Source: Blasia pusilla (lineage: Eukaryota). Taken from it: a stretch of 64,000 nt of DNA. Every line of letters starts with the position of its first letter. Position 1 is the stretch's first letter. Shown in pieces: positions 17,373-47,400 of this stretch. The stretch is taken from the NCBI GenBank assembly GCA_050084515.1, contig CM114271.1, positions 29,822,001 through 29,886,000 on the forward strand, in the 5' to 3' direction. Both the position numbers and the translations under genes were made by a program. Below the pieces are notes generated by a model. It did not search any database. It had not been told where the DNA came from and worked only from the letters and a program-made list of their open reading frames with translations.

Positions 17373-18003
17373 TGTCACGACTATTAGGATAGATCGATGG
17401 GATCTAGCAGATCGTCTTCACAAGTAGTGGAGGATAGGCCCAGGAGGTCAAGAATGACCTATTGAGGCCCCGAGAAACCTGAGAGAGCAGGTTTCCCCTT
17501 CGGCTCATTTGGAGCCATATAGAGAAAATTACTATTTTGAGTAAGTTTCCATATTGGGAATAGTTGACTTTCCAATTTGGGAAGTGGCCCTTAACCCGCT
17601 ACAGCAAGTCAAGAGCCAAGGAGATGACTTGCGAGCATAGGTTACCGTTGAGAGGGCTTGGGAGGGGAAAGGGGGTATACCTCGATCCAGGAGAGAGAGC
17701 TTGGGAGCTCATTCTCTTTTTGTTGAACATCTTGGCATAAGGCGGCAGAGCTATGGTCCCTTGCCTTGTGAGTGTAACCCAAGCCTCTCATTAGGAGAGT
17801 GGGTTTGGTTTGACATGAGAGAGGGTGCACACCTTTGAGAGCTATGGTGTGAGATGATGTAGAGAGAGATTGGATCTTATTTTATTGGAGATATTTTGGT
17901 ACTTCTTGCCTCTGTGTATGGATGTCATGAATTAGCATGGGATCGCGTGTGTGTGTTCGATGACAACGATGTATGTTGTGTAGCGATGTATATGCGCACG
18001 ATA
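17373..18003 (+). mobile_element. Solo A-B unit of the DNMT-gypsy terminal repeat family
   Basis: TGTCAC...GCACGATA termini with a perfect 4-bp duplication CCCT (17369-17372 / 18004-18007). 17373-17885 is homologous to 46756-46240 (A); 17886-18003 is homologous to 38262-38137 (B). Confidence 0.85.
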
Positions 18004-18727
18004 CCCTGTCTACCAAGCTAAATCCTAGACTTATAAGGATTTCCACTTCATCTTGAGTACAATTTGTATCTGCAACAATGGGCCAAATCGTAGGAATATT
18101 CCCTAGAGCTCTAATGGAAATTTTCGGTTTGATTTCCTGAACACGCATGATTAATTTGGACAAAAAATTATTTCAAATAATCTCTAATCCATCTAAAACG
18201 ATCGAAGGTTTTGAGCCCCCAAAAGGTTGTCAGTGGTCAGGTTGTCCTTACACACTTGTTAATATGGAATCGGGGGCTAGTATTATGGAAGGAGAGAGAA
18301 AGAGAGGAAGCTTAAGAGAGAAGGGTCTCTCTAAAAACAAGTACAAATCCTTAACCTCTCTTCAAAAATTTCTTCTAGTTTTTAATATTCTCATCTACTC
18401 GAAATACAAGACATATTTAAAATAGAGTTACTAGTGGACAAGGTTGGGGCATAAACTAACCTCATTTTTTCTGAGCAGGAAAATTATTTGGAAATGTGAA
18501 GACCACTTCACAAATGCTTAAATCACTCTCTATATAAGCCAGATTTACTCAAGCTGGAGGGTATTTTATCATTGTAGAATCATCATAAGGGAATTTCTTC
18601 ACTAGAGAACTAGAATAAATGGATATTAAAGATGGACTTGGACTTGGAAGAGATGGTAGAAAATTTTGATTAGGCCTAAACTGAAGGAGTAAAGAACCAT
18701 TTGGGGTTGGTGAAGTATCATGAGAGT

Positions 18728-20494
18728 TTTCATGCACATACATATGGTTACACAACACACATCTTTGTCATTGAATACGCACATAAACACACAAGATTCC
18801 ATGCTAACTTATGACATCTAAACATTGAGATGATAGAGTACCAAAATATCTCCAGTAAATCAAGGCAATTTGAACAAGATCTCTTACAAGGTGCACATAA
18901 GAGATCTCTCTCTCTCATGTCAAACCAAATCCACTCTCCTAATGAGAAGCTTGGGTTACTCACAAGGCAAGGAGGACCATAGCTCCATTGCCTCATGCGA
19001 AGAGGTTGAACAAAGAGAGAATGAGTTCTAAAGCTCTCTCTCCTTGGATTTACCTACTTCCCTCTCCCAAGCTCTCTCCATGGTAACCTATGGGCTTAGG
19101 TCATCTCCTTGGATCTTGACCTGCTATAGGGATCAAGGGAAACTTTCCAAAGCGGAAGTCAACTCTACTCAAAACTATAACTTCCTAAAAATATGAAGTT
19201 TCTCTATATAGCTCTAAATGAGCCAAAACGAAGTGGATACATACTCTCTTAGGTTACACGTGGCCTCAAGAGGTCATCCTTGACCTCTTGAGGTTGTTCT
19301 CCACTATCCTTAAAGACGCTCTACTAGATCTCATCGATCTATCCTAAAAGATGTGACAACTGTCGTGCGCATACACATCGCCATACAACATACATTTTTA
19401 TTACCAAATACACAAGAATTGTCGCTGTCTACTTCTCAACTAAGAATTTTACCAAAAGTTTTGAAATTGCTCCTTCCTTCACAAGTTGGCTATGGTAGCC
19501 CATAGAAATGGTCACAGCTTTGTGCTCAAATATCCAAATTGTGCTCAATTTCTTTGAAAACATGGTTAAATTTTTGATCTGCGATGTTGTCAAATTGGTT
19601 TGCTCATTTGACTTTCCATAAAAAATTGAAGACAATTGTCGTGCACGTCATGGCCTACTCTCCAAAATAAAATTTAGCAACGCTTCCACATTGATTTTTT
19701 CCACAAAAAATTGAGAAACTATGCAAACTAACTCCAGCAAGCTACAAGATACTCTTGAGAGCCCTAACATGGAGAACCCCATCCCCATACTCAAATCCTA
19801 TTAAAAATTGGGCAACGCTTCTACGCGCTACTTTCTCGTACAAAAATTTGCATCACAAAGCAGAGAAACGAGCGGCTCTTGCTCCCGTGAGCACTCCCAT
19901 AAGCTATTCAATGGGGAACACGATCCCCAACCTGAAAATGCAAGGAGAAAACAATGAGCACCCGCATTAATTATGGAGTTGTCAATCTTCCATTCTCTGT
20001 TTGTAAATCAAGGTTCTCTCAACAAGATCTCTCACAAGGTGCACACACTATATCTCTCTCTAATGTCAAACCAAACTTACTCTCCTAATGAGAGGCTTGG
20101 GTTACTCATAAGGCAAGGAGAACCATAGCTCTGCCACCTCAAGCAAAGAGATTCAACAACGACCAAATGAGCTCCAAATGTCTCTCTCCTTAGGTATAGC
20201 CCCTTCTTTCTCCCAAGCTCTCTCCACTCTAACCTACACTCGCAAGTCACCCTAGAGGATCAAGGCCCACTTCCCAAAGTGTAAATTTAACTCTACTTAA
20301 AAGGATAACTTACCCAAAATAGTAATTCTCTCTATATAGCTCCAATTAAATGAGACAAAACGAAGAGGAAATCTGCTCTCTCACGTTACCCATGGCCTCA
20401 CCAGGTCATCCTAAACCTCTTGAGCTAGGTTGTCCTCCACTATCCTAGAAGGTGCTCTTCTAGATCTTGTCGATCTATCCTAAAAGACATGACA
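18728..20494 (-). mobile_element. Internally deleted family member with A-leader-B(part)-GT-A-B architecture
   Basis: In element sense: A 20494-20003; leader 19960-19660, homologous to 46190-45895; partial B 19414-19361; GT spacer 19360-19359; A 19358-18855; B 18854-18728. Confidence 0.8.
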
Positions 20495-20924
20495 AAGCAG
20501 ATGAGACATTGTAATGGTCAATTTATCAAAGATCTCAAAATTTAGTCCTCCGCCATTTTGAATTCAAAAAAGTTCCAAGAAATGAGTAGTAAGGAGATAA
20601 TGTGGATGTAAAGTTTCTACCAAATGGAGAATTTCAATTTTTCCAAGAATGACTTAGAAGACTTGGAGGCCACGAATGACTTACAAAAATTGGCTAAATA
20701 GTGGTTAAATGGAGTCTTAAGAAAGTTGGTTTGTCAACTTTGGTTAAACACAAATGGTAGAAGTGAATGAAACCAACAAGCTTAAGGAAATGAAAATTGA
20801 AGAGGGAGTTGCAAAAATCAGTTCAAGAAAATGGAAATCGACAATCATAAAGAACAAACCTTAGAAGTAAATCCTACAACTTGTCAAAATCCCACAAGTT
20901 GTAGGACATCTCTTGGACTACTTC

Positions 20925-21365
20925 AATTGCCATTAAACATATGAGTTCCAACATGAATATATATCCTTGTGTAGTTGTACTTTGAATTTAAAGTTATATC
21001 GTACACTATGAAGAAAATGTTAGCCGAATAGGCTGCAATAGAAAATGGGGATGTTTGAAAATATAGACATTTGTGCCCACTAGATGATATAGTGGCTCCA
21101 ACGGTGCAAGGAGTCTCCACATTTTTGTGGGGGAATTAGGAGGTATTGACTTCTCTGTTTTTTTCCAAAAAGGGGCATCGTGGAGAAACAATTTATCAAA
21201 CGCTTGAGGTGGAAGTGCTAGTTTGTTGAAGTCTACACCAATGATGATAGTTGGATTTCCAATTCATACCCTTCAAGCATTCTCCAACTTTCTTTAGAGA
21301 AGAACATGCCACCGGAGGCAACTCAAAAATATAATTCCCACCATAAGTTGTCACCATAAGGCCCC
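20925..21365 (-). pseudogene. Second fragment of the MULE-like transposase N-terminal region
   Basis: TTYGGNYIFELPP...LKGMNWKSNYHHWCRLQQTS and IFFIVYDITLNSKYNYTRIYIHVGTH are homologous to 12700-13240. Confidence 0.65.
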
Positions 21366-21639
21366 ATGGAATCAATGATATCAACAATGTATTACTCAAG
21401 ACACATTTTCATAAACTTCAAACTTGGGAGTTGATGTTGGATTGATGCTTAGTTGACAAGACGATTGCAAATTGGCAAAATCTGGCAGGTGGCAGAAATA
21501 AGGACTCTTGGGACATTGCAACCCATTAGATTATAATGGATTTCTAGGGGGAAAGGGTTTTTCTTCTTCTTTTATTTTTTATTCTTTTTGAGGGGGGAGG
21601 GGGGCTAGCGCTCAATTTAAGGGCCACTGCAAAAAATTT

Positions 21640-22560
21640 CCTTTTCCTTCTACTCAACTTTTTGCATCATTTCCAACAATAAGAATAGTAGGCTTTTGTA
21701 GAGGTTGTACAGAGCTATACCAATCCTTTCAACTATTTATATGCCTAGATGCTCCACTATCGAGCACTCATGCATCTTCACTCTTTGACTTAGTGGGATA
21801 ATTTTCTTGTGTGCAAAAATCTTCAATTGCTACCCAAAAAATCTACCTCATATTCTTCCAATTCTAAAAAATTTCTAGACTTCTTCCTAGGTCTTAAGCA
21901 ACCATTCTTCTCATCCTAACTTCTCTATCTACAATCCTTGATAAAATGACCTATCTTATTATAATAGAAGCATTTGAAAGCTGTTTTGGGAAACTTCTTC
22001 TTTACATTAGAACTAGAAACTTTATTCCTTCCTCTCTCTATGTTGGCATTAAATATATGAGGCAGCATTTCCCTCTAGCTTTGAATCAGATTAATTTCCT
22101 CGTCTACCAATATTCCACTAAATTGTTCAAAGGCCAACAATATAGGTCTCAATGTTGTGACCAAATGGTCATACCTTAGAGCCAAAATACTTATGCAACA
22201 ACGAGCCAAATCCTCGGCCAAATCTTCACTTGAATTCAATATTCCTATCAACACCATCTGATCTTCAAGATTCTTTATCCTACTTAGGAATTACGTACTT
22301 CATGCTTCCTCTTTTTGAAAGATTTCTCGGACGTAAGCTGATTCTCCATAATTTGAATCCAAGTCTCATTCTTGATCTCTTACAAGTTCTTATATTACCA
22401 ATGTTTTTGAAGCTTTGAAAATTCAACGCCTCAACAACACTAGTCATATTTTACATGAGAGTCATGAAAAAATCAATTACATCCATGATAATGGCAAATA
22501 GGGCACCGACAATTGAGTGTTTTCCACACTAGCTAATCCAAATGGAAAAAAATATAGAAC
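21640..22560 (-). mobile_element. Ty1/copia gag-protease fragment
   Basis: UBN2-like gag (ILALRYDHLVTTL...ILVDEE), a decayed Zn knuckle and the copia protease motif *VLDSGASRHI..KDWY at ~21720-21775. Confidence 0.75.
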
Positions 22561-25500: not shown

Positions 25501-27188
25501 AATTCAAATCCACTTAAGGGCATCTATGTGGGGCTACGGGTATCAGTGGCAGTGGATTCTTCCGCACTACAACCACTAAAGTAACATGTCTCTTGTCTAC
25601 TCCCAGAGCATACAGAATATGGAGATTAATGAGTACCTGGGCCGACATGCCCACATATTCGGCAAAATTCAATGAAAATTTTGAGTCCTAGTATTGAACA
25701 GTGAAATGGGTGGCTGATAAGTTCAGAGAATGAAGTTTCATTTGGATTGCAGTCACCAGCGTCCGAGCTAGCTGTCCTTCCATTTCCTCCCTCCATTTTT
25801 CTAGTAGGTTTAGCTTGACGATCAACACGCGACCGAGGGACATACAGCCAGCGAGTGAGAAAAGATAGGTATAGCAATCTGATTTCTCACCACGAACAAC
25901 TGCAGTTTAAGATTTTGGACATGTTGGTCGTTGAGTCGATTCATGGCCAGACCTAGTGACAGTGGAGACGAAAGCATCAATGCAGACCGCTATGCAGAGT
26001 GTAGATTACAATTCGACTTGGCCATGATGCATGTCTGAAGGACAGAAATTTATGCTCGTGCTCAACACAAATTTGTGCACTTCGTAGACGGTTTTGGTCT
26101 CATCGCAACGAAATGCCACGTTCAATTTCCAAGCCTGTACACCTAGACAACCATGCAATCTGGGGGCAAAGGTGAAGATTATAAGGATGGATCTTAACGT
26201 CGAATCTACACCTTAAAATTGATGATACTCGAGTGTGACTAGGTGGAGCAAAAAATCTTTCACTAGTCTCCAGACAAACACTCAGGAATCATTTCCATAG
26301 CAAATAAACAACTGGCTATTAGTGATAAGATCTAATGAAAGGACATGCCCTAACACGGTGCAAAAACATTAGCTCTAATGGGTGGACCGGTGACTGAAAT
26401 GTGGAGGTTTCTTGGTTCCCAACTGTACCCATATCGTTCCACGGCGATATGTAAAAAAATACCCCTTTGTATTTCATGGAGTGAAAAGTCTGGCAATTAA
26501 GACCTCTGGAGAATCGCTTCTTCTGCATTTCTCTTCCACGTTTACATACACATCACCATAGAACTGCGACATGTGCTGCGGAAGACCTACTCGCACCCGT
26601 AGCTCCGCCTAGAAAACTTGAAAATGTCCAAGTTTAACGCGTGCCCATGGGATGAGACGCAGGAGTAGATAGTCCCGAATAAGCGCAGCCCCTCAATCTT
26701 CTCCGATAATGTCTCCTTGAATGCTCCGGTTGTAGATTCTGTGCGGATTGCCTCCCCTTCCAAAACTGACTACTGGTTATCGTTATCGCCTTCAGGCTCT
26801 GGTTATTGGAATCTTAATCTGTTCTGCCTGGCAATGCTTTGCATGCGGCAGCAGTCTGTCAACTTTCCATTCGGGCTCCTCATTCACATTGATTACAGTC
26901 ACGACGGCAATTATCTACCCTGTGCGGCTGTGCATCGCCTAGCTTTTCCTATCACCTATCTGTGTCTGAAATCTGCACACGCTATAACTCAGACGAGAAT
27001 CCTTAACCTCCAATTGGTGGCCAAGCACCATGTCCAATCTTAGACGTAATGTGCGAGGAGAACAAATTACAAGAGAATCTACCATCTTTACCCTATCGAT
27101 TGTTCAATATCTTCACCATTTACAAGGATAAATGGCGAATTTCTTAGAAAGTTTCAAGTGTAGGGATGCAATTGCATGCCACATTTAA

Positions 27189-27217
27189 GTAGTAAGAGTG
27201 CCCGTGCGATGCACTGG
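27189..27217 (-). mobile_element. Putative Helitron 3' end
   Basis: Hairpin ccagtgcatcgcacggg 8 nt upstream of CTAC|T on the minus strand (canonical CTAG|T, one mismatch). Confidence 0.35.
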
Positions 27218-27889
27218 CGTCGGGAAGTTCGGGAACGCGATCTTTGGATCTCCTAGATCAACCACGGTGAATTCGTGGGCTCCCGCGGTGCCCCTCGGTA
27301 AGCGGGTTGGCAGTTGTAGTTCAACTCTACAGTGGACAGTGGTGCTTCCTCGGAGTTAGGTGTCCGCAGATTACGGAAGGAAGTCTGAACAGTAGTCTTG
27401 TTGTGGCAACGAGGCTACTGTTCTTCTTGCCACAACGTGTCCATCTGTTGATGTCTGCGATATCAAAACCCCTCGAACTCGACATGCGAAAGAACTCTTG
27501 CGCATTTTTGGACTCCTCTTTTGAGTTGTTATTACCTTGCTTTGTCCTCTTTTTAAGTTTATTTTATAGTAAAGTGGATGTATCTAGTAACTCACTCATT
27601 AAGAACATGTTAGAGCCGAGTAAAAACCCGAACTGCAGCGGATCCCCACCTGGCTACAGATCTTACAGGTTTCCATCGCTACGGTCTTTACATCCTCTCT
27701 ACACAAATCCTAAAGAAAAAAGAGAGGGGAAAGACTTAGCAAGCTCGTGCGGAAATGGTGAAACCATTCTGCGAGCCGTGCCTATCTCTGCGGTAGTCAC
27801 ATCCTCATCAGTCGAACTACTCTCGGATACTAATAGTGCAAACCATCTGGGCTTCGTCATAGAAAGCTAGCTATGACGATAACAATTTA

Positions 27890-30500
27890 GCAATTTTATG
27901 GCATGGAAGTTTTTTGTTTCAGCATTTTAGAAGGTCTTCCAATGGATTATTATAAGAGGTTTCAATTCTTACATCTTGTAGAGATCGATGCTTGTAGGGT
28001 GTGTTGGGCTTTAAGATGTATGTTCACTAGAGGTTGTTAGGCATATGATGGGGTAGTGAGGGAGGTTAGACCCACAACATCGGCCTAAGGACTAGACGGA
28101 GATGATGAGAGTGATGGCGATAAGGTGGGAAAGACCTTTGGTGGTAGAGCGCCACTTAGTTTCCGTCTATCATGAAATTATTCCTAGAGTTCGGGAGCAA
28201 CTACTAGGGCATGTGGATCAAAAAGTTGAAGAATCTACAAGATTTTTCAGCTAAGATCGGGTAAGAGTCTACAAAAGGCATTCATGCACATGCGACGGCT
28301 GATCATTACCACTCACGGAGTGATTGAGGCACATGCAATTCACTATTGGCATGGGGTTCTAGATCCATGGTCGCACATGAGAGTTCACGATACAATGTTG
28401 CTTCACACGACGAAGCCCACATCGAAGGTGATCTTTGAGTTGTTTGATTGGATTGAGATCAACATGAGTAAGCCTTAGTAAAGAGCATGTTGTGACTACG
28501 AGTCTCCCAAAAATTATTGGAGCGTAGGCAATTCAACATTGGTATGGGGTTTTGGATCTAGACTTGTAGAGGAGAGTTTAGGATGCAATGTTGCTTCATA
28601 CGAGGAAGCCCACATTTAAGGTGGTCTTCGAGTTGTTGGTTGGATTGAGCTCAACATGAGTGAGGAACATATTGTGACCACGAGATTCCCTCAAGATTCA
28701 ACGGATCCACATGTGTCCGAAGCCCCACAAGTGCCCCAACCCGCACCAATGCAACTAGAATAGATTGGTTTATCTAAAGAGCAAAGAAGGTCTTGTGAGA
28801 CTATCAAGGTTGCACACCGACAAAGTCCGTGTCCATGGAAATTTCCATGTGCCCGCGGGCCCGAATAGCTAGGAACGACACGCGAGCCCGAATAGCTAGG
28901 ATCGGCACGCGAGCCTGCCTCCAACCCGCACCCGTTGCGTGGCCCGCAGCCCGGCCTAGTGCGGGCCTCTAGCCTGCCTTGTGGACCTTGGATGCGGGCT
29001 TAAGGCCCGCTAAAATTGATCCGCTAGACCAAGATTTGGTCCGATAGACCACCTTTTGGTCCGGCTGATCACCTTTTGGTCTGCTAGACCAAATTTTTGC
29101 GGGCCCTCGAGCCCATGCCTTCTCTCCTCGAGGTTGTGCTTGCCCGCACCTTGCCCGCCCTAAGCCCGCGCCTACCTGCTCAGAGCCCGTACCTGCCCCC
29201 CTTAAGCTCCAGCCTGCCCGTCTGGAGCCCGCACCTGCCGGCCCTAGCCCGCGCATAACCGCCATAGCCCGCATCTGCACGCCCCAAGCCCGCACCTGCT
29301 TGCCCGGAGCATGGTTGCACAAAAACGGACAATTCCTTCCTTAGGATGGACATGGACGGACAAGTCTGGACATGTCCACGAACATGGATTCCAAGAGGTG
29401 GGACCCACACTTTTAGTTCATGATGGAAGGCAAGGCAGGGATGAGAGGAGCAATAAGGGAGGAGGGAGTGGAGGTGGAGGTGGAGGGAGGAAGAAATGGG
29501 GGAGTATGGAACATAAAGGCAAGTAAGGGGAATTAGACAGAAGGGAAAGGTGGGGCCCATACGTACAAGTCCTTCCATAGGACGGACATGGACATGTCCA
29601 CGAACACGGACTTTGTCCACATACAACCTTGTCCCGGAGCCCACACGTGCCCGTCGGGAGCCCGCCCTAGCCCGCACATGCCTACTTTGAGCCCACGCCT
29701 AGCCTACCCTGAGCCCATCCTGCGGGCACCCAACGGGTGCGGGCTCCGTCAACCCGGGTCTAGGTGGCACGCTCTGAGGTGGGCTCGAGTGCAGGCCCGA
29801 GTGCGGGCCAGACATGCCCGTCCCATAGACGGACTTGTCTATTTGCGTGCAACCTTGGAGACTATGAGGCAATGACCCATGCATATCTATGTTGGATAGC
29901 AAGGACCAAGTTTGGTGTGTTGGATGTGTGTTAGACCCCATAGATAGAGGGATTGCCCACAATATGATGGAGAGCCGGCCGAGGGCGCCTTGATCATAAT
30001 GTTCAAGAGCCACATAAGATAGCCCCACCATAGTCAAAATATGATCAATGTTATTGATATAATCATACTAGGGATATGTGTTTCAAGCTTCACCAAGGGA
30101 TTCGTCTAGAGATAGGACGAGGGCCAAGGAACAGGATATTTTGGGGAATTAATGACGGTGGTGGTAGAGTTCCATTGCTTGTCAGAGGAGATAGACAACA
30201 TGCATCTTATACAACCTTGCTCACTCCCATCGATTACTTGGTGGAGAGGATTGCTACCATGAGGATGACACAACCAGCTATGGACATGAAGCACAAGATA
30301 TTTCTTTAGCTTCAGCTTCCACATCATATCAAGATACGTAGGAGGACTTCTTTAGTATGGTATTTATATGTAGTGCGGCTCAGGAAGAGGTTGCGACTAT
30401 GGTAACTGAGACCTAAGGCACTGCGAGAGTGATCAAAGCTTAGATGAGATGGAGTTGAGATAGACCCAAAGGAGAGAGCTGATAGGTGATAGGTCAGGGT
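27890..30500 (+). mobile_element. Decayed gag of a relative of the DNMT-gypsy family, split by a hAT MITE
   Basis: EGLPMDYY, KLKNLQDF and HMRRLIITTHGVIEAHAIHYWHGVLD match EGAPMDDY, KLRSIHDF and HLRRLINVTQGVIEAQAIQSWYAMID at 43850-44330. Internal duplication at about 28390-28510 / 28585-28695. Confidence 0.7.
28805..29857. mobile_element. Non-autonomous hAT element (MITE)
   Basis: 11-bp TIR CAAGGTTGCAC/GTGCAACCTTG; perfect 8-bp TSD GAGACTAT (28797-28804, 29858-29865); GC-rich cccgcac subrepeats; an internal TIR-like end at ~29313. Confidence 0.9.
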
Positions 30501-30644
30501 TCCCCAATCATTTACAATGACGAAAGTATTACACACACCATCGATAGTGCCCAGACGACTAGCTATCTTCATTTCCTACACTCATTAATACTGAAAGGAA
30601 AAAAACTAAAATCAGAATGTGATTTATATAACATATTATTTTAG

Positions 30645-34000: not shown

Positions 34001-34129
34001 CTAGAATTCTACAGGTCCACATGATTGGAGCACTCAGTTGTATGTGCAGAAAATATGTAGTTGTGCACAAACCTCCGGGAGAACTGCAACTTAAGGTCTT
34101 TAAACTCGGGCCGTAAAAAATATAGAGGC

Positions 34130-35372: not shown

Positions 35373-35404
35373 CCGCTAGTTTGTCTTATTGTGCTTTATT
35401 GGAC

Positions 35405-36136: not shown

Positions 36137-36229
36137 TGATGTCTCTTAGTATTATCTTGTGGTGGGAACCTCTTTATAGTGCCTCATTTATGCGGGCCCA
36201 AATTCAGGAAAAGAACTAATAAATGAGAC

Positions 36230-38136
36230 ATGGGAAATATAAAAGTAAAGTAGTGGATTGGTATATTAATTAAAATAAGCTAAAATAGAGTTGGTTGGTT
36301 GCTAGGGTAGTTCGGATAGTTTGGAGGATAGTAAGTGGATTTAGGGGGATATTTTAGGAGGAGATAGCGTGTAATCTAATTCTCTCAAAATAGGATGGGC
36401 CAAACCTTCAAAGGAAGCTATATGGCATAAGATAAGATTAGTCGTATCAAGTAAAGATTCTCTTCGTAGATAGGCACTGGTTTACTCGTTATCTAGTCTA
36501 TCACTTTGGAGAGGCATTCATGAACCAGGTCGTGCAATCACCAATCCCAGTCATAGTTCCTATTATCACGTATGGAAAGACTTGGGATTGTACTTTATAT
36601 GTCCTTATTTAGCGATCTCCAGACGTAAATAGGTCTGCTTGAATAGGGTTCAATACTAGTTGTGCTATTTTTCTTACGTACAAACATAAAGTAGTTTATA
36701 GAGACTTCATAGTTGGATATTTTGGGGTTAGATGTTACAATGAAGTGATTGCCTTCATACTACCGTTCGTGATTCTTGTTGTGAGAGAATGGAGAGTGTG
36801 TGTAGTGATTCTATACTATAAAACTTATTATAGAATTCAATCTTGCATCAACGACTACGTAGCTAGAAGGTCTGTCTTTACTCAAAGAAAACTCTTGATA
36901 GGACAAATGGTGCTTCCACTAAGAGATCTTTGAGATGGTCGATTGTGTTTTGCAAATTTTGGTTTTATCAAGATTACTTCTTTAGGTTGTGCTTTATCAA
37001 TGGAAACTGAGGAAGTTGAGGATCTTCTCCAAACTTTGACAACATTATTGAGTCAACAAAGCGGAGTTCACATGGGAGAGCAAAGATAAAAAAAAGGGCT
37101 CTTCCCAGGGTTTGATGGGAGAAATATCACCAAATATGTTCGAGAGTAAGTATGTGAGATGGTAGAACATCGTGTTCTCAAAAGTGAAATGATGTTAAGT
37201 TTTAAATTAGCTGTAATACCAAAGATTCATAATGAGGTGAAGAAATTGGGAGCTCAAAATCCAACCTCATAGGAGGAGTTTGAGCAATTATTGAAAGGAG
37301 AATTCTTTGATGACGATGTGGATCGAGTAACCAAGAGGACTTTCTTAGAATGGATAGAGCAACGTCTAAGAAAGGGAATGACTCCTCACGAATTATTGCG
37401 TAAGTTTAAGAAGCGATTTTTCCAATTATCTTCTTCTATAAGGGAAATTCTTGAATCTTGATTTGAGGAAAACCGAGCTATTTTTTGAGGCAACTATTGA
37501 TAATTTGAAGGAAAAGCTTTTCCTAATGCCAGTTGATGAGACCGAAGAAGCAGGTATAAGTACGGATGGGAAGAAAGTAGAAGAAGTTGTTTCCATCATC
37601 ACGAAGCAGAGCCGTGGTAGAGATAGAGCTGCAATGTTCAAGTTAGAGGTATCAATTTTGACTTCCTTGAATTGCAGAACCCCGTAGTAACAAAGCTCAA
37701 AGATTCTGCCATTGATAAGTTGGTGAAAGGTTTGACAGAGTTGAGAGTAGAGATGGCCGAGCTTAAGCATGATAGGAATCCTAGTGTTTATGCTCTTTTG
37801 ACAAGTAACAACTTTGTGAGGAGATGCATATGATGTGATAGTATTGAGTATTAAGAATGTGGGGAGTTCTCGGAAGCTCTCAGGAATAGAGTTGTAAATT
37901 TCAGAGATGGAAAGATTCATTCAATACATATTAATATGCCGTTGAATACCAATTTTGGTAAAGGAGGAATGAAGAGCTTATTGAGAGGTCAAGTGAGAAT
38001 GGCCACTATGATATTAGATTCTAAGATCTTTGCAGTGAAGATAGAAGCACCTATTATATCTATAGCTAAGATTGAATAATTAAAATTTCCTATAGAAATG
38101 ATGCTACGAGGGATAGAGACTATCCGTCATCTGACT
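36230..38136 (+). mobile_element. Host Ty3/gypsy element: 5' LTR end, PBS and decayed gag (continues after 46756)
   Basis: LTR end ...GGACA (36905), PBS-like TGGTGCTTCCACTAAGAG (36908), gag from ATG 37000 (FDGRNITKY, EFFDDDVDRVTKRTFLEWIE, TNFGKGGMK). The frame IRHLT| resumes as RWDDYVEV at 46761. The left boundary is approximate. Confidence 0.75.
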
Positions 38137-38449
38137 TGTCGTGCGCATACATATCGCTACACAACATACATCATTGTCACCGAACATACACACAAACACA
38201 TACGATCCCATGCTAACTTATGGCATCCAAACAACAAGACAAGAAGTACCAAAATATATCCAATAGCCCCCCTAGCACGTGGTTAGGTTCCTCTAACTCC
38301 AGATAGTCATCTATCCTACCTACCATGACATACATCTCTCCGACGCTAAGAGCAAGAAGATCGGGTGCTCATGTGGCCCCATCATTAGTCGCCTTATTGT
38401 CATCCATGTCACAGACACAAGTTGGAATGTAGAACTACCTAATCTATGT

Positions 38450-38584
38450 ACATCTGGGACACATCCATTGTCCCTGAGGAACCCTAGTGAGAGGTGGCGT
38501 CAAACATGCCATATGCTATCCTTTCAAACATCCATCACAGACTAGCATAATAGCTGCACCGCGCGCAGAACCACACAACATACA
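38450..38584 (-). pseudogene. PHD finger at the integrase C-terminus
   Basis: CMLC...[31 protein letters not shown] is a C4HC3 PHD consensus with one W->stop. Confidence 0.9.
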
Positions 38585-38785
38585 TCGCAAGTCTGCAAGA
38601 ACTACTACTAAGCTCGGATCAACTATACCGTCAATGTTCGAAAGGTGACACGGTGCACAATTACGCACATGGTCCTTCCAAACCATACCATTGCGTCCCT
38701 CCAATAAGAGAACACCTAATGGCAAAACCTCATGCACTCTCAAGATGGTGCGCCCTGCAGTCACATCCAACGTTGTAGGTGCCGT

Positions 38786-39720
38786 CTATTGCAAGTAGAC
38801 ATAGTCTCCTTGATTAAACCTCTGGATAGTAGGTTGATAACCACCTCCCCATATAGTCGCATACCTCAATGTATCCCGATGTTGCGCAATCGCTAAGTTG
38901 TCAAACGACATGGGCATCACTCTCCGAAATAATTTAGCCCTCTGAGAACATGCTCGCATCCATACATCACGGTCATCAAGGTTCAACACCGCACCAACAT
39001 CTCGACGAATGGCCGTAGGTAAATCTGGGTCACGGCCATAAAGCACCAAGTACGGTGAGAAAGACGCTAAGGATGCCTGGCTGCTGAATCTGTATCCCAT
39101 CGCCAACCATGGCAACTAAAGGTCTCAATCTCCTAGGTAACCTCTCTGCAAGCCATACTTACGTAATCCTCTCTTCACCATCTGCACAACCCTCTCTACT
39201 AGTCCATCCACCTTAGGATGATCTCGTGAAGTGGTGCAATGGTCAATTAGTGCCTAATCACACAAGGCTTGAAACTCCCCGCGAAACTATGTTCCTCGTC
39301 TGTCAACACCTCAGCTGGTGCGCCGTAATGACTCAACACTCGATCTAGGAAGGCATACGCTACTCCCTCATTCGCTTTGTCAAGCAATGCAACCAATTCT
39401 ATCCACTTCGAGAAGTGCTCGATCATCACCAACACATAACGACTATAGCGCTCTATCAAAGGCAAAGGTCCTGCAAAATCCAAACTCTATCTATAACCTA
39501 AACCCATGATCAAAAGTTGATGCAACTATGGAGTCAAAGCATTCAATGATGCTCGGACTTGATCACACACCATGCATCTAGCAACAAACTGTTGAACGTC
39601 AGTCTGCATGCCTCGCCACCAATACTGAATCTAGAGCAAGTTGTACGTCCGCTTCATTCCAAAATGACCCAACTCCTCATGGGCATGACGCACCAAACGT
39701 GCTCTCTACGAAGGATGAGG
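38786..39720 (-). pseudogene. Retrotransposon integrase
   Basis: HEELGHFG..CMVC Zn finger, DFAGPL, EHFSKWIELVAL, VLTD, GLVERVVQMVKRGL, FSPYLVLYGRDPDLP. Confidence 0.9.
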
Positions 39721-40049
39721 CACTACACGCACTCTACCATCCTCCCACACTCGCAACACATATGTCCCCTCCCACCGAAACCGTGTGGCTCATTGTAGGA
39801 TCCGATCCCGCTCTCTAGCACCCACTGTGCTCGCGACGCTGCCAATATGCAGATACTCCAAGACCACTCCATCGTCGCAAATATCTCGGCCACTTGTTGT
39901 CTAGTCATCAGCCTCTGGATCTAAGGACTTTCCATCAAACCTCACCATCGAAGTCTCAACAGTCTCCATAGCCAACAAGCCCAAATAGGCTGACACATGC
40001 CATCCTGGCACCAACTCCTCATCACTCTCACCATGCAAACGACCTCCAC

Positions 40050-41385
40050 TCGCATCTCGCTGACTCGGGCATGGGTTACGGCTCAAACCATCTGTATCTT
40101 AGTTGAGCGTCTCAGGTCTATGCACCACCTAGAAGTCATACTCCTGCAACAAAAGACCTCACCACGCAAGCTTCCTTGTAAGCTTGTCGGACTCCATCAA
40201 CCACTTAAGTGGATGATGATTAGTAATGATGGTAAACGGATTGCCAAATAGATAACATGTGAAGTGAACGACAGTCCACACTACAGCCAAGCACTCACCA
40301 TCATACGAGCTTTACTTTGCCTTTGCAGCGTTGTGCGAGCGACTAGCGTAAGCCACCATGAACTCTCTACCATCATCATCATGTTGGGTGGGCACGGCTC
40401 CAAGCCCCAACATGCTCCAATCGGTATGCAAACGGAAAGGATGCCCCTTGATTGGTCTCTTCAATATGGGCGCGGACATCAATCTGTCCTTCAACATTTG
40501 AAATGCTCTCCTCTTCTCATCCCCGTAGTGCAACTCCTGATCCATCTTGGTCAGAATGGTCAGCGACTTTGCAATCGAGCTGAAACCCTCGACGTACCAT
40601 CGATAGAAGTTTGCCAATCCCATAAATGCACCAACTCGACTCACATCTATAGAGCATGGAATGCCTGAAATAGCCTCTACCTTCCTCTGCTGCACACCAA
40701 GGTCCCCTGGGTATATCATATGACCCAAGTACTCAATCTGGTCGTAGAAGAACTTGCACTTGCCTGGATGTAGCTTCAGCCCATATAATTGCAATCTTCA
40801 AAACACCTCCTCTAGATGTCGCTCATGCTCCTCAACCGTGGCGCTAAAGACTACAATGTCATAATAAAACATCTAGCAAAATCCAGACCTGCCAAGATCC
40901 TATCCATGACCCTATGAAACTTAGCTAAGGCGTTCTTTAACCAAAATGGTAAGAACCGCCACTGGTACAAACAATCCTTCCCGTAAGGATCGATGCCCCA
41001 AAATGTCATCTTGTGCTTGATACGTCTTGTGATCCTCCAATTTGATAGGCAGCTGATGGCATCCGACTCGCAAATCCAATGAACTGAAGACCTTTGCATG
41101 CCCAATCGCATCAAAGATCTCCTCAGGTGTGGGCATGGCATACCTATCGGACTTTGTCTACCGATTGATAGGTCGGTAATCTCCACACATCCGCCTATAC
41201 GTCTAGTTGCCATGCACATCCTTCTTGGCAGGCATGAAAGTGGCAGATGCATACTCCCCATGCGACATCTCCACTAGTCCTGCTCCGACCAAGTGCTGGC
41301 TCTTACTCTGAATCAAAGCCCTCGCCATATCACTATACCTGTAGGGTCGTCGGAAGATCGGCATTTCGCTCGACAACTCAATGCG
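40050..41385 (-). pseudogene. Ty3/gypsy reverse transcriptase and RNase H
   Basis: IFRRPYRY, MPTPEEIFDAIGHAKVFSSLDLRVG, FLPFWLKNA, frameshifted (Y)IDDIVVFS at ~40855, KLHPGKC..YLGH, LHTDWSMLGLGAV. Confidence 0.9.
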
Positions 41386-41389
41386 AATC

Positions 41390-41971
41390 CCTCCGCAACA
41401 CCTCGTGTGGTACCAAGTTGGTCCCCAAAAAATGCAGGGGATGTGCTCGTAAACCCACACTCGCCGCATCCAACAAAACTATCGGGCCGATCCATGCGCG
41501 CACCTGATATGCACTCGTCATCACACAGGACCTCGAATCGCCCAAAAGTGGTACATTCTCTAGAATGTATGCTGGAGGACAAGACTAATGCTCCTACAAG
41601 TGTCACAAGATCCACATCATCTCCCAAAACAACCTGGACCGAGAGTCAACTAATCCGCTACCCCGTCCAGTACTCGACTGGCCCTAACATGGCCAACCAG
41701 CAATAACCAAGTCTATGGTCCCAACCCGCTCCAAGTCCTGTGCCCCCAACAATGAAATATCCCTCGGTAGGGAACTCTGGTAACCCTATATGGCGAACGC
41801 ATACAACAAGTCAAGAAAATGGAGGCGTAACTGCGCCACATGGTGAAGTAAAGCGCGCCTTGTAACATCATCAATCTCCACATACAAGTACTACTGCACG
41901 CGCACTCTAGCATGCAAAACAGCAGCTAACCCAATGTTGATCCCTCCAAAGAGATCAAAAACCCAAATACC
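41390..41971 (-). pseudogene. C5-cytosine DNA methyltransferase domain (DNMT3/bacterial-type motif order), C-terminally truncated
   Basis: One unbroken frame with 6 stops: GIWVFDLFGGINIGLAAV (I), YLYVEID (II), DISLL (III), IDLVIAGWPC*GQSSTGRGSGLVDSRSRLFWEM (IV/V), YILENV (VI), LDAASVGLRAHPLHFLGTNL (VIII). Confidence 0.9.
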
Positions 41972-42399
41972 CTCCTCTAGGATGCACCACACAATCGGGT
42001 TGGTGTCCAAAGGGGTCATAGCAGCACTCTTGCCTACCTGGGATTCCTCTAACCTGTCACACTCTGGTGCAAACGTCTCGCTCCACGCGGTTTGCGCATG
42101 CTCAGTGGCTAAGCGTCGAAGCTCCTCAGCCCCAAAGCGGCACCTCTCCTCCACGGAATGATGCGGCTACCATGACACTCCTCTCCATAGAAATATCAGG
42201 AACAGGAGTATCCTCTGTATGGACATGTCCCTAAATCAAATCACTAGGCCAAGTGATGGCACTACTAAATGCTGCTAAGATCGCCATCTCTTCTGGCCGT
42301 CGCTCTATCACTGCACCTGTGAATCGAACAAGTAATGAGCTAAGGTGCCCATCACCTGACTCCCATCCTGGTCTATAGGACGTTGACTCCTCCCAATCA

Positions 42400-42760
42400 T
42401 CCAAGGAAAATCCCATCGGGTATAACATAGCTCCACCAACCAAGACATCGCAAGACTCTGCATCGGTCCCTATCGCCTTGGCTTGCACCACGGACTCATC
42501 TATAGGATGTCCTAGGCGAATTCTCACCACGACCTCCTGTCGGGTGATATATTGTGTGATACTTGCTCCATCCAAGGATGTCTGCATCTAGAATGGACAA
42601 TGCTCCACATCGGCTCTCGTCAAGCCCAATCCTTTGAATGAAACTTTCCCAACATCAGGGGTTGCGCTCCTAAATCCAACAAGACGTGATGCGGACTAAA
42701 AGCTCTACCTCCATGACTCACCAACTGGAAGACCTCTCCCCGGTTATCTAGCAACACAAC
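42400..42760 (-). pseudogene. Aspartic protease
   Basis: HVLLDLGAQPLMLG (DSG-like active site) and downstream DVLVGG motif. Confidence 0.7.
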
Positions 42761-43399
42761 ACTAGGAGAAGCCATAGCACGCTCTATCGCGGGTCTAGCG
42801 AGCATCTCCGCCATCCTAGCATCCACAGCCTGCCATGAATCTGACATGGACGGCCCAAACATCCGCTCCAAGGGCAAGTCCATCACCTCCTCTGTCATCA
42901 TCTCTGAACGTGATGCAGGAACTCCAACTCTGACTCACATAACGTAGCGGCCAGCCGGAACACCTCGGCGGGCACAACTCCCAATGTTATAACATCGGAA
43001 GCAGAAAATAGCGGATCACGGTACACCATCGTGGTCAGCCCCCAACATTGTACTCGACACATGCTCCTCCTAAGCATCAGCAATAGGAGTCGTTGCACTC
43101 GTTTATCCCATTGCCTTCCATGCCTGCACACCAATAATATCACCAACTCTCCGGGAACTCTTATGAGAACCCATCGATAGGGTCCTCATTGCCTCGGACA
43201 ACGTGAAAGATTGAGGAAGCGTGGTCTGTTTCCTGGCTTCCCCTCATTATGGATCCAACTCTGCGGCTGCTCCACGCATCACAACTACGGCGGTCTCTAT
43301 TTGGGCAATCCCGCACATCCAACCAGGATCCTCTATATCTCTGGCTGCTCCATATGATTTCGATGCCATGGATCCGGCATCAGATAACCTCAATGCCAT

Positions 43400-44481
43400 A
43401 GCGGCAATCTGCTCCTCTAGTTGCTATATCTGAGCAGCCAACCCAACCTCATGCCCCACATCTCCCTCAACGCGTCCAGGTGTGTGACCATATCTCTCAC
43501 AATAGTCACACAGATAACCTCCCGGTGCAACATTATCTCCTCCTCCATACTGAGGCACATGTCCAAGATACTAACAAGTGCAATCACGTTGATGATGGGC
43601 TCCACCACATGACCAACAAGTAATCGTAGGCGGTTGCTACTAAGCTGCATATGGCACGGCCTCTCGGTATCCTCTCTGAGCTCGTGGTGCCACAGTCGAC
43701 CTATCTCGGAGTCCACATTGCTGCATAGGTGGTGTAGACAATCGTGACTACTCTCGCCCAAAACCCATGGTGGCTACGCTTTGCTCGGCCATGTTGCGCT
43801 TAATGTTCTCGGCGGTCCAAAAAACATCTCTCAACATAGGGGAGGTGTTCATAAGAAGCACCCCTCCCGCACCCGTGTCCACAGGATTCGGTCAATCATC
43901 GCATACCATGACTGGATAGCCTGAGCCTCTATCACCCCTTGAGTGACGTTGATCAACCGACGCAAGTGAGTGCAAGCCTCGCGCAAACTCTCACCCGGGC
44001 GCCTCAAGAAGTCATGGATGCTCCGCAACTTCTCCGTCCGTACCCCTTGGTAGCTCGCCCTCAACTCAACGAAGAACTTAACCACGGGGTTGAACCTGGG
44101 AGGAACCCGACTAGATGGTGCAACTACTCTAGTGCGAGTGACCCCTCCTAAAACATCACTAGTGGAAGAGGAAGTAGCCTCTCCTAACTCCTCCTCCTCA
44201 TCTGGGAATGGCTCCATCCATGACACATAGTGTGGGTTATAGTAGAGTTGCCATGCCTCAATCTCCTAGGCATATCTGTGGGAGAACTCATGGTAATCGT
44301 CCATGGGTGCCCCCTCTAAATTCTCGAACATACCTTTCCATGCTGTGAACGGGTTGAACTCTCTAGAGTTCCTAGCCCGTTGTGAGTCACACCAATCCCT
44401 AAACTCTGCAATGAAGTCGTGTAACTCTATAGTGCCTACAACACCCGAAAACCTACACGGTCCTCTACCCCGGTCGTCCAT
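43400..44481 (-). pseudogene. Gag
   Basis: CRFSGVVGTIELHDFIAEFRDWCD, KLRSIHDFLRRPGESLREACTHLRRL (major-homology-region-like), decayed Zn knuckle near 43550. Confidence 0.7.
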
Positions 44482-47400
44482 CTCCTACGCCCAACTGGTA
44501 GGACCACTTAATGTGTATGGTGGATCACTAACACACTCCTTTACACGCTCCCCCTCTTCTGAAGACGACACATAAGGAGATCGAGGTGGTCTCTCACGTG
44601 GAGACCCTCGAAACCCTCCAGAGCTACTCTCAGGTCCACTACCTCGCCTCTCAAAATCCTGAAAGCATGCCGTGATGGCCCTCATGCCCCTTGTGCCCCT
44701 CTCACACAATCACTCCTAATCTCACAAGTAATCCCTCAATCACTCAAACTAAACATGCGGCACTCAATCTACACTCTCTCATTGAGACGTGTGATGTACA
44801 GAAAAGTAATTGATCTATCGTCTCATCCACAAACCATCCTCAACTCAGGACATCCCACACAGTTCTATGTCCCCTAAACCCATACATCATCGATGCTCTC
44901 AGCATCAGCACAAAACCCAATATCCCAAATAACTTCCCAATAGCCGAAAATCCCTCACACGTGCAGGGTAGAAGACCAGAATGGGTAACCTCACAATAAT
45001 GTCGATGTCGCTCCTCGGAAATTGCAAATCTCGGCCCCAACTCGGTCATGAAGACAACTCCTCCAATCAGCAAGTCGTACTCCTCTCGTACTGACGCTGC
45101 TCAAACCTCCTCGATATGCAGCACTAACGGCACAGAACGGCTACAAACGGCACGACACTCGGGAATGGGGTGTGGCACTTGGCGGAATACCCTCCTCAAT
45201 CAGAAATTCACACGCTCAGCTCCTCAGTGAAGGAGTGGCTCCGTGATAGAGATGGTGCGGTGCGGCCATGAGCGGCACGGCGCGGCAATCGGCGGCGCGT
45301 TGCGGCTACAGGCGTCACGGCACGGGACTCGATTGTCATCGAGCGGCTACTAATCACAACATAGCAGCATGAAAGGAAAACCCAAACACCATAACCCAAT
45401 GTCATCTACCATCACTAGTTGATAACGATACTGTGATGATGGTGGCGGCCAAAACAAAGTACGTGGTGGCGGCGCAAATCAGAGAATCAACGATCGTCTT
45501 GGAAGACCCTCCACTATGTAATGGCGGCAATGGCAACCAAGGGTTGACAAGGGCCGAACGCAGCTCTGAGCAACGCTAGGCGGTGGCGGCAGCCGACGGT
45601 GGATGGTGGTCCGTTTACGGTCAATGGTGACAGTTGACCGTTGATGATGACTCTGACGGCAATAGCCGCCGCCGGCGCGGGGGCTGGTTTAGGGTTTGAA
45701 AATTTTAACCCTAAAAATCGCATAGAAATGGAAGTTTTGAAAGATTGACCATAACTTTTTGCTTGCAAATCCAAATTGCGTAGTATCTTTAATACAGCGT
45801 GCACAGCTTTACGATTTACAACAATGTCAAAAAATATTTTGAATCGGACATTCTAGTAAAAATTGATGGGGACTGTTGTACAGCCCAACGTCTCTTTCTC
45901 CTACACAAAATTTGGCAGCGCTTCCGCTCTAATTTCTCCCAACAAAAATGTAAAACCTATGAGAACACAAATCAACAAGCTACATGGTGCTCCCGAGAGC
46001 ACCGGCATGGAGCAATCTGCCCCCATACTCAATTCCTATCAAAAATTGGGCAGCGCTTCCGCATGCCACTCTTCCGTACAAAAAATCAGCAAAGCAAAAC
46101 AACAAATTCGCATGGCTCTTGCTCCGGTGAGCACTCCCATGAGCCATGAAGGGGGGAACATGGTCCCCGAACCTGCACCAAACATCGAGCAACCATAGAG
46201 CTCCCCCATGAAGCTCTCTCACTCAATCATTCTTTCTTTGTAAAATAAGATTCAATCTCTCTCACAATACCATAGTTATCACATGTATGCACTCTCACAT
46301 GTCTCGCTCAATGTCAAACCAAACCCACTCTCCTAATGAGAGGCTTGGATTACATTCATAAGGCAAGGGATCATAGCTCTGCCACCTCGTGCCAAGAAGT
46401 TCAACAAAGAGAGAATGAGCTCTTAAGCTCTCTCTCCCTGAGGTATATCCCTCCTCTCTCCCAAACTCTCTCCTTGGTAACATATGCTCCCAAGTCACCT
46501 CCTTGGCTCTTGACCTGATGTAGGAGGTCAAGGGTCACTTACCAAAAATATATAGTCGACCATATACTCAAAATGGTACTAACCTAAATTAGTAAGTTCT
46601 TCAATATGGCTCCAAATGACCCGAAACGAAGGGGAAACCTGCACTCTCAGATTTCCCGTGGCCTCAACATGTCATTCTCGACCTCTTGAGCCTATCCTCC
46701 ACTACTTGCGAAGGCGCTCTACTAGATCTCACCGATCTATCCTAAAAGATGTGACTTACTAGATGGGATGATTATGTGGAAGTGGGTACGTTAAAGCATA
46801 TTAACATAAGAGAAACATTTCAGTTGGCAAGATGCAAGTGTGGAAGAGAAGAGGCGATGCGATAATAATGGTGGTGATCTTTGAGGAAGCTGCAAGAAGA
46901 GCGAGAATTACAAGAAGGAAAGGTAACTAGAGGTGTAAGCATCAAGAGAAGAAAGGCCTTCTACGTGTGAATCTATGATGGATTCTCACGTTTGAGGAGG
47001 ACTTTGGACAAAATCTCTCCATCAAGGAAGTGTAAGGAACCTTTGATATTGACTACATCTAGTTGGAGGAGTCCAAATCCACATCTTTGGACGTAGGTTC
47101 CATTTCTTTTCAGAGAGATTATCGTGGAATCTTCTCGACCATCAACCTCATATAGTCGAGCAATGGTAACTAGAGAGGCATCCAAAGCAACACTGCTTGC
47201 TCACAATAATAGAGCTCCACCTCCGTGTTGAGGCTCACACTGGTTAGGCTTTGAGACTTCTTGAGAGCTGATAAATGTACTTCTCTTCTCTACTTTGGAG
47301 AAGGGAGAGGCGGAAGTGAATCGAAAGCTCTGTTCTGACAGTGGAGAGAGTGGAAATGCTAGAATCGTAGCACCTACCATCGGAGGAGGGTGTGGTAGCG

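Follow-up and report, generated by a model that had tools for sequence, protein, structure and literature searches.

A split-repeat Gypsy-DNMT3 retrotransposon of the liverwort Blasia pusilla, with integration ends apparently permuted relative to its predicted reverse-transcription ends

A stretch of 64,000 nucleotides (nt) from the genome of the liverwort Blasia pusilla (GenBank assembly GCA_050084515.1, contig CM114271.1, positions 29,822,001 to 29,886,000 of the forward strand; hereafter, the window) contains an 8.6-kb retroelement that begins with one terminal block, named A, and ends with another, named B. Its architecture and family assignment are nearly certain: it is a decayed retrotransposon of Ty3/gypsy order and of the Gypsy-DNMT3 type, composed of gag, a protease-like region, a Dnmt3-like methyltransferase, reverse transcriptase (RT), RNase H and a DDE integrase. 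In its family, copies are inserted with A first and B last, while the signals for reverse transcription predict a complementary DNA (cDNA) that starts with B and ends with A. I consider it somewhat probable, taking the statement as a whole, that this Gypsy-DNMT3 element is self-primed and is integrated as a permuted unit by means of its integrase acting on a palindrome. The last step, the action of the integrase on the palindrome, is by itself a tentative proposal.

The window was searched by blastn with two queries, a solo A-B copy of 631 bp and the 8.6-kb copy. The solo copy (17373-18003, plus strand) found four matches: the A block of the 8.6-kb copy (46755-46303, 82% identity), the B block of the same copy (38265-38139, 84%), an A-B unit at 19358-18730 (76%), and a second A at 20494-20056 (75%). 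The 8.6-kb query added the leader that follows A (element positions 8-860 against 20487-19659, 73%) and a 56-nt tail of B at 19414-19361, both in what is called locus 2 below. Every block that an initial annotation, made from the letters of the window, had placed was recovered in this way. Block A is about 513 bp in length and block B is 126 bp. As listed in Table 1, the blocks occur in four arrangements: A-interior-B (46756-38137, minus strand), solo A-B, A-leader-deletion-B tail-GT-A-B (locus 2), and a B-GT-A fragment. In a four-way alignment, the end of A occupies an identical column in every copy. What comes next is B (TGGAG..., TGGAGATATTTTGG) in the two A-B copies, so that the joint indeed falls at the same point in two loci, and a common leader in the other two copies (AAAGAAAG / AAACAGAG; AAAGAAAGAATG / AAACAGAGAATG). 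The joint of locus 2 (minus strand, 19370-19351) reads ...GCGCACGACA GT TGTCACATC....

The solo A-B copy is flanked by an exact target-site duplication (TSD) of 4 bp, CCCT/CCCT, as had been claimed. The flanks of the 8.6-kb copy (AGTA/AGTC) match at three of four positions and those of locus 2 (GCTT/ACTC) at two of four. The 8.6-kb copy had been said to start with TGTCAC. This holds for the family, but the first base of the copy itself, at 46756, is A instead of T, and the copy begins with AGTCAC. It was confirmed that the 8.6-kb copy has no matching long terminal repeats (LTRs), with A at its 5′ end, B at its 3′ end, and no trace of a second A-B unit (A2-B2) downstream, where the local alignment score was 11 against a shuffle mean of 11.2. 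An A-start-like sequence past the copy, AGTCAGATG..., was rejected as a remnant of A2; its alignment score was no better than those of shuffles. In no window copy do the two ends carry one and the same repeat, A being found at the 5′ end and B at the 3′ end, and a pair of identical terminal LTRs was likewise absent from the metagenome loci described below. All the window copies are dead, old, and rearranged.

Relatives with better-kept ends were found in metagenomes. An alignment of 14 family proteins, used as a query, led to 80 metagenome loci. Loci L001-L063 were used, while L064-L080 were dropped because they matched weakly (E 1e-7 or worse) and within the methyltransferase part of the query alone. 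When P0032 was the sole query, no relative was recovered from the metagenomes. Self-comparison covered the 20 loci of at least 9 kb, and the A and B blocks of L051 were compared by blastn with all 63 loci. The metagenome contigs may be chimeric across repeat copies.

L051 is an intact full form, A1-interior-B1-NN-A2-B2, where NN is a spacer of two nucleotides. Its repeat pairs lie at 1676-2017 and 10350-10691 (92% identity) and at 10238-10350 and 10693-10805 (94%). At the left end, the flank AAGG is followed by TGTCATGACC..., and at the right end, ...CGCACGACA is followed by the flank AAGG, giving an exact TSD (AAGG/AAGG). The B1-A2 joint reads ...ATGACA GC TGTCAT..., and the polypurine tract CTAGGGGGGCGAG lies immediately 5′ of B1. 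The form A-pol-B-NN-A-B, which the initial annotation had postulated from fragments, is therefore real, and its 3′ part is present in four more loci (L005, which is cut inside A2, L030, L037, and L063). Thus the order A-coding-B-A-B, known from DIRS-like elements, is seen in L051 as a whole, in the 3′ parts of these four loci, in locus 2 of the window, and in the host reads described below.

Informative sequence after B was available in 16 metagenome loci. B is followed by NN-A in five of them, namely L051 and the four loci just named, and directly by flanking sequence in nine (L012, L013, L015, L017, L022, L033, L035, L040, and L048); the remaining two, L041 and L042, are one rearranged locus seen twice. 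At the other end, B was not found before any of 17 A-leader 5′ ends, with 14 distinct flanks, in the metagenome contigs. Exact 4-bp TSDs at the A start and the B end were found in five of the six loci with two ends (AAGG in L051; TGTG, TACA, ATTA, and CACA among L013, L035, L040, and L041), and three of the four positions match in the sixth, L015. The termini TGTCA...GACA with a short TSD are those of a gypsy element. The B-flank locus L013 and the B-A-B locus L037 have the same 3′ flank at 95-99% identity and represent one locus without and with A2-B. The B of L013 is a mosaic of sites from B1 and B2 of L037, the diagnostic sites being mostly C/T. The difference between L013 and L037 may be due to real recombination or to an assembler that skipped the loop.

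Is the B-NN-A joint common in the host? Two whole-genome shotgun runs of the host, 139 Gb each (X12 and X13), were examined; a sample of about 1.4% of each was mapped to positions 38000-46900 of the window at a likeness of 80% or more. Read depth was about 4,650 on A and ranged from about 860 to 3,770 across interior bins, with both mate orientations summed. If the runs cover the genome 10- to 100-fold, the copy number of the family would be of the order of 10^3 to 10^4. Counting only the best-supported joints, beyond which there were 444 further ones, reads that skip from the A end to the B start number at least 568 in X12 (220+42+96+46+164) and at least 576 in X13, and reads that go from the B end back to the A start number at least 670 in X12 (32+70+37+237+205+89) and at least 704 in X13. 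Within each class of joint, the number of different starting places ranges from tens to more than 100. The consensus of loose read ends agrees in both directions: the B end continues into the A start, and the A start continues into the B end. The B-NN-A joint regularly belongs to the family, at a frequency close to that of the A-B joint, and neither is a rare accident. The possibility raised in the initial annotation, that B-GT-A joints are rare chance tandem insertions, is not borne out by these counts.

The spacer in the B-NN-A reads is AC (at least 176 reads in X12 and 202 in X13), GC (at least 109 and 92), GT (at least 73 in each run), or AT (at least 49 and 55). In the contigs, the spacers at the B-A joint are GC, AC, AT, GC, and AC in the five metagenome loci, and GT twice in the window. 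Among the differences in the family, C>T and G>A greatly predominate (1478 and 1220 places in X12). All observed spacers can be traced to GC by transitions, which makes the joint a palindrome, GACA-GC-TGTC; its L051 version is perfect for 14 nt (ATGACAGCTGTCAT). A non-templated or flank-derived origin of the 2-bp spacer was considered and rejected because each of the six spacers, like each of the four read classes, differs from GC by no more than two transitions, and the decay of the family is dominated by C>T and G>A changes.

Two other features of the read mapping deserve mention. At window positions 38172 and 46311, more than 1,000 reads per run leave the reference, with an agreement of about 0.9. 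These loose ends indicate that most members have a different 5′ half of B, like that of the fragment at 5409-5338, together with a solo-like 3′ part of A, and that the subfamily of the 8.6-kb copy is a minority one. In about 67 reads per run, the flanks of this copy (38136 to 46808) are joined to each other, with the copy and a further 50 nt or so skipped. They possibly come from paralogous empty sites, if the element sits in another repeat.

The signals for reverse transcription lie at the inner borders of A and B. Both the window copy and the metagenome family have a polypurine tract that abuts B and is preceded by a GGARGTTAGAGGRACCTAACCAC motif. Of 13 distinct B1 starts in the metagenome loci, 10 have the tract directly adjacent (the 13 derive from 14 rows, since L030 and L032 are identical in reading and may represent a single locus). 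At the other border, the initial annotation was right that no transfer RNA (tRNA)-type primer-binding site (PBS) follows A, as the 8.6-kb copy has no TGG start there, but it had missed a candidate self-primer PBS at this place. The 15 nt after A are complementary to a segment inside A at 15 of 15 positions in L047 and L051, at 14 of 15 in L005, L028, and the 8.6-kb window copy, and at 12 of 15 in L040 and L041. Of 5000 dinucleotide shuffles of A, none reached the observed complementarity, either for the window copy or for L051 (where the 15-mer was shifted by 2 nt, with 14 of 15). The candidate primer and PBS sequences differ by family, TCATTCTCTCTTTGT/ACAAAGAAAGAATGA in the window versus ACATAGTTCTTTGAG/CTCAAAGAACTATGT in the metagenome, and in both families the primer segment lies 175 nt before the A end. 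A TATA-like sequence, GATATACC, is located about 29 nt upstream of this segment (46450-46443, minus strand).

The A-B joint consists of the A end, the 2 nt that follow the polypurine tract, and B. It reads ...TTTTCA + GT-TGTGG in the metagenome family and ...TTATTTT + AT-TGGAG in the window family. This is the composition predicted for the two ends of the cDNA joined blunt. By the same prediction, the ends of reverse transcription (B...A) and the ends of integration (A...B) would be permuted relative to each other.

Some exceptional joints were also observed. In L041 (14237-14252) and L042 (5691-5706), the A-B joint contains 16 extra nt, the first 9 of which are the start of the self-primer site (CTCAAAGAA). 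It resembles an aberrant circle junction that keeps PBS sequence; an A fragment in inverted orientation is also present at this locus. Three copies with internal deletions (L015 around 7296-7304, L017 around 4600-4608, and L033 around 5761-5769) have a non-canonical purine-ended sequence before B (..AAAAAG, ..GGAGGAAG, and ..AAGGTGAA, respectively), which suggests deletions by template switching at short homology.

The interior of the 8.6-kb copy is heavily decayed, with a longest frame of at most 161 codons. A Pfam search of the window frames detected RNase H (RT_RNaseH_2, 1e-16; RT_RNaseH, 1.8e-12) and an integrase core (rve, 5e-06, 27.1 bits, at 39486-39250; the Pfam cut-off is 32.6). The order of the Pol domains, RT-RNase H-integrase, is that of gypsy elements in both the window copy and its relative L002. 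Thus, the initial annotation correctly recognized a gypsy element with a DDE integrase, while a DNA methyltransferase domain had escaped it. The C5-methyltransferase motifs DLFGG, PC(stop), and ENVP were found in one frame between the protease-like region and the RT. With the nine stops of this frame read as X, PF00145 was matched at 1.1e-08 (35.3 bits; cut-off, 22), and the best solved matches of the domain were DNMT3A/3B and DRM2. The element therefore has the defining trait of Gypsy-DNMT3, a Dnmt3-like C5 methyltransferase placed inside the gypsy polyprotein between the protease-like region and the RT. Pfam searches on single broken frames missed the methyltransferase, RT, and gag regions, and the methyltransferase was detected only after the stops were read as X.

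The metagenome locus with the fewest stops, L002, has zf-CCHC, DNA_methylase, RVT_1, RNase H, Integrase_H2C2, and rve domains in that order. A homolog search among longer proteins gave 33 matches, the best with 55% identity. The best-matching named homologs come from Calypogeia fissa, Marchantia polymorpha, and Sphagnum, and several of them have RVT_1 and RNase H; unnamed metagenome proteins among the 33 also carry rve and PHD. No tyrosine recombinase was matched by Pfam in the 20 window frames and three L002 frames scanned, which yielded integrase domains. DNMT-bearing gypsy polyproteins come in two domain orders: P0030 and P0032 have RT-RNaseH-DNMT-integrase-PHD, in contrast to gag-protease-DNMT-RT in the window family (P0025, L002, and the window copy). 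The two orders suggest either two captures of the methyltransferase or a move of the domain.

How might such an element replicate? Transcription would start at the candidate self-primer segment, 175 nt before the A end. The minus strand would be self-primed as in Tf1, and the plus strand would be primed at the polypurine tract. The LTR of the cDNA would then be B-NN-A, with a U3 made of B, NN, and the 5′ part of A, and an R-U5 made of the last 175 nt of A, and the whole cDNA would be LTR(B-GC-A)-interior-LTR(B-GC-A). Its ends may be joined in a 2-LTR-type circle or by an end-to-end template switch, generating the A-B joint. The integrase would ignore the cDNA ends and cut the internal palindrome GACA-GC-TGTC after CA on both strands, leaving 2-nt overhangs. 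Insertion of the permuted molecule, A first and B last, would produce A1-interior-B1-NN-A2-B2 with a 4-bp TSD. Later recombination between the A blocks would give a solo A-B, and that between the B blocks would give A-interior-B. The 8.6-kb copy and the solo copy are most simply explained as such products, which is consistent with the data but unproven. Since A-interior-B and solo A-B lack a downstream A, they would have no acceptor for the first strand transfer. The general claim, that integration is uncoupled from the cDNA ends, with the integrase cutting an internal palindrome on both strands of a circular or concatemeric cDNA so that the inserted copy is a circular permutation, is rather doubtful at present.

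Several points weigh against this proposal. Every mechanistic step is deduced from sequence, and the rve match of the window copy is below the Pfam cut-off. The self-primer match is 11 of 15 or less in 9 of the 16 copies tested, which are decayed copies, and L003 among them has a different leader. More seriously, the alternative permutation, A-B-NN-A-interior-B, occurs at none of the 14 distinct 5′ ends, as against the observed form in five metagenome loci and one window locus. A circle with two identical palindromes should give both permutations equally. Since only one is seen, the simple circle model is incomplete and some directional step is missing from it. Finally, B-flank loci outnumber B-NN-A-B loci (nine versus five) in the metagenome contigs, and A-interior-B could be a primary product or an assembly artefact.

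The single permutation would be explained if extra template switches during reverse transcription built a linear cDNA whose first block is A and whose last is B (A-int-B-NN-A-B, perhaps lengthened by 2 nt at both ends). The integrase would then process ordinary ends, without a circle or an internal cut, and the TGTCA...GACA ends with a 4-bp TSD are just what ordinary integrase ends look like; B precedes none of the 14 distinct 5′ ends, whereas there are six copies of the observed form. However, the conserved polypurine tract lies before B and not before A, and the self-primer site lies after A1 and not after B2. Standard strand transfers from these priming sites give B...A ends, and no second priming site was found at the B-A joint, which is not purine-rich. 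I regard this explanation as unlikely.

The predominance of B-flank over B-NN-A joints (nine metagenome loci to five) raises another explanation, in which A-interior-B is the primary product. The integrase would cut the palindrome in each LTR of a linear cDNA and trim the outer B and the outer A, and the rarer full copies would come from circles or concatemers. The exact TSDs on the A-interior-B copies L013, L035, and L040, and the absence of an A2-B2 trace from the 8.6-kb window copy, are in line with this idea. On the other side, A-interior-B has no downstream R acceptor and could not replicate. The host reads contain B-NN-A joints as frequently as A-B joints (at least 670 and 704 reads versus at least 568 and 576), indicating that full-type 3′ ends are common, and assemblers can skip a B-A-B loop, as the two readings of the single locus L013/L037 illustrate. 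This explanation has a small probability in my estimate.

Two further explanations are very improbable. One of them, that of an ordinary LTR element (LTR, B-NN-A or A-B) whose orders arose by chance tandem or nested insertion or by misassembly, draws on the predicted reverse-transcription LTR, which is B-NN-A, and on the age and rearrangement of all the window copies; yet no copy bounded by a B start and an A end was found among the contigs, TSDs lie at the A start and the B end in five of six loci and in the window solo copy, the layout is found again in five metagenome loci and the window as well as hundreds of junction reads from more than 100 places in each of the two runs, and Klebsormidium elements with the same layout are described by de Mendoza et al. 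(2018, PMC5890265). The other, a DIRS/Ngaro/PAT-like movement in which a circle is integrated by a recombinase or by host recombination and the integrase is irrelevant, would suit A1-int-B1-A2-B2 as the split-direct-repeat order of DIRS-type elements but is contradicted by the TSDs: exact 4-bp TSDs and TG...CA termini mark DDE integration, DIRS elements make no TSD in the descriptions available, and the scanned frames contain rve and Integrase_H2C2 and no tyrosine recombinase. Integration of a permuted molecule by the integrase remains the explanation that I prefer.

Table 1. Features of the Gypsy-DNMT3 family in the window (coordinates are those of the window).
Feature	Position	Strand	Remarks
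Block A (A1) of the 8.6-kb copy	46244..46756	-	Begins AGTCAC, ends ...TTATTTT
Candidate self-primer and start of R, TCATTCTCTCTTTGT	46404..46418	-	175 nt before A end; 14/15 complementary to PBS; predicted transcription start
Candidate primer-binding site, ACAAAGAAAGAATGA	46229..46243	-	Directly after A
gag-like region	43852..44484	-	Open frames without Pfam match; in relative L002, zf-CCHC precedes DNMT
Dnmt3-like C5 cytosine methyltransferase domain	41315..42166	-	PF00145, 1.1e-08; 9 stops
Reverse transcriptase remnant	40854..41273	-	Motif by eye only, no Pfam match; RVT_1 at homologous position in L002
RNase H domain	40162..40797	-	RT_RNaseH_2, RT_RNaseH
Integrase core and C-terminal part	38789..39486	-	rve weak; L002 has Integrase_H2C2 and rve
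Polypurine tract, AGGGGGG then CTAT	38263..38273	-	Abuts B; same motif abuts B1 in metagenome loci
Block B of the 8.6-kb copy	38137..38262	-	TGGATAT...GCGCACGACA
Solo A-B	17373..18003	+	CCCT at 17369-17372 and 18004-18007
Internally deleted full form (locus 2)	18728..20494	-	A1 20494-~20007, leader, unrelated or deleted stretch, B1 tail 19414-19361, GT 19360-19359, A2 19358-18855, B2 18854-18728
Fragment of a further copy	5338..5409	-	B tail, GT, first ~12 nt of A
Second copy, both ends truncated	57286..60429	-	Protease-like to DNMT region, 72-78% identical; upstream side adjoined and overlapped by a conventional chromovirus

Other parts of the window were also inspected. Weak tblastx matches to the gag/protease-like part of the element were found at 27918-30546 (plus strand), and may stem from a third copy, far older and oppositely oriented. 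The conventional chromovirus next to the second copy (60227-63563, plus strand) has RVT_1, RNase H, Integrase_H2C2, rve, a Tf2-1-like SH3 domain, and a chromodomain, and may run off the window; its region 61370-63019 is 69-74% identical to Riccia proteins, which by itself suggests that the host is probably a liverwort. An open frame of 591 codons with two MatE domains (3.5e-61) lies among decayed repeats at 51520-53292 (plus strand) and probably represents a single-exon MATE transporter gene of the host. The stretches 53746-54667 and 57107-57190 contain a tandem array, with copies 86-88% identical and a period of about 231-247 bp, and a (CT)n run.

The element belongs, by the features tested, with the Gypsy-DNMT3 elements of Klebsormidium. 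KnitGypsy-Dnmt3 of Klebsormidium nitens is a gypsy element with Dnmt3 in its Pol, and the legend of Fig. 4c in de Mendoza et al. (2018, PMC5890265) likens its repeats to those of a DIRS retrotransposon. Gypsy domains, a Dnmt3-type methyltransferase in Pol, and A-coding-B-A-B repeats are thus common to both. This precedent, for which the layout had been noted in a figure legend only, corrects the view of the initial annotation that split repeats are untypical of gypsy elements, and the split-repeat layout itself is not new. On the other hand, the host there is a charophyte and here a liverwort, and the main text of that paper (PMC5890265) gives no details of TSD, junction, PBS, or polypurine tract. 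The kinship rests on these features, and no Klebsormidium sequence was identified among the matches. Later papers merely cite "Gypsy-DNMT3" in streptophytes. In the literature searched, no other paper naming KnitGypsy-Dnmt3 was found, and searches on split-repeat gypsy elements, Marchantia DNMT3 gypsy elements, and methyltransferase-encoding LTR elements of liverworts gave no description of the termini. The high-copy occurrence in bryophyte-type hosts was found nowhere in print and is new, as are the TSD of 4 bp, the palindrome at the joint, the position of the polypurine tract ahead of B, the candidate self-primer site behind A, and the A-B joint as putative joined cDNA ends.

Other systems resemble the element in single traits. 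With the DIRS-order elements (Ngaro, PAT, and VIPER), it has the termini A1-internal-B1-A2-B2 in common, and only this repeat order; DIRS, Ngaro, and PAT encode a tyrosine recombinase and make no TSD, in contrast to the DDE integrase, 4-bp TSDs, and TG...CA ends found here. As in Tf1/sushi and the Tcn1 chromoviruses of plants, for which self-priming is predicted by Neumann et al. (2019, PMC6317226), a site that adjoins the 5′ repeat can pair with a stretch of that repeat itself and not with a tRNA. However, homologs of the present element have a C-terminal PHD finger instead of a chromodomain (by precomputed Pfam), and in Tf1/sushi/Tcn1, the LTR ends are the integration ends. Ginger1 and Ginger2 share a gypsy-type integrase, TGTNR termini, and a 4-bp TSD with it, but these transposons, as described by Bao et al. 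(2010, PMC2836005), have terminal inverted repeats of 40-270 bp and no RT or RNase H, whereas RT, RNase H, a polypurine tract, and a candidate PBS are kept here and the inverted termini are about 7 bp. The integrase of foamy virus cuts the palindromic LTR-LTR junction of 2-LTR circles, according to Delelis et al. (2005, PMC1180852). The proposed substrate in the present family is similar, a CA...TG palindrome of two head-to-head element ends. Unlike the retroviral junction, a ligation by-product with a 4-bp spacer, this palindrome is permanent inside the LTR and has a 2-bp spacer. A 2007 report by Delelis and colleagues (PMC1905944) is said to deal with cleavage of the palindromic LTR-LTR junction by the HIV-1 integrase.

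By definition, an LTR retrotransposon has identical LTRs, and their outer ends serve both as cDNA ends and as integrase substrates. The Gypsy-DNMT3 family appears to break this identity of LTR ends with integration ends, and its layout poses a concrete question for integrase biochemistry, the cutting of an internal palindrome. Since LTR-finding pipelines seem to demand matching LTRs and a TSD, to judge from the method outlined by Neumann et al. (PMC6317226), such elements would be mis-called or dropped, and the family may be under-annotated in bryophyte genomes. If the proposed route is true, the family would represent a living intermediate that connects LTR retrotransposons with DIRS-like elements, which have split repeats, and with cut-and-paste transposons derived from an integrase, such as Ginger, and it would provide a natural case of a 2-LTR-circle-like molecule serving as the obligatory integration substrate.

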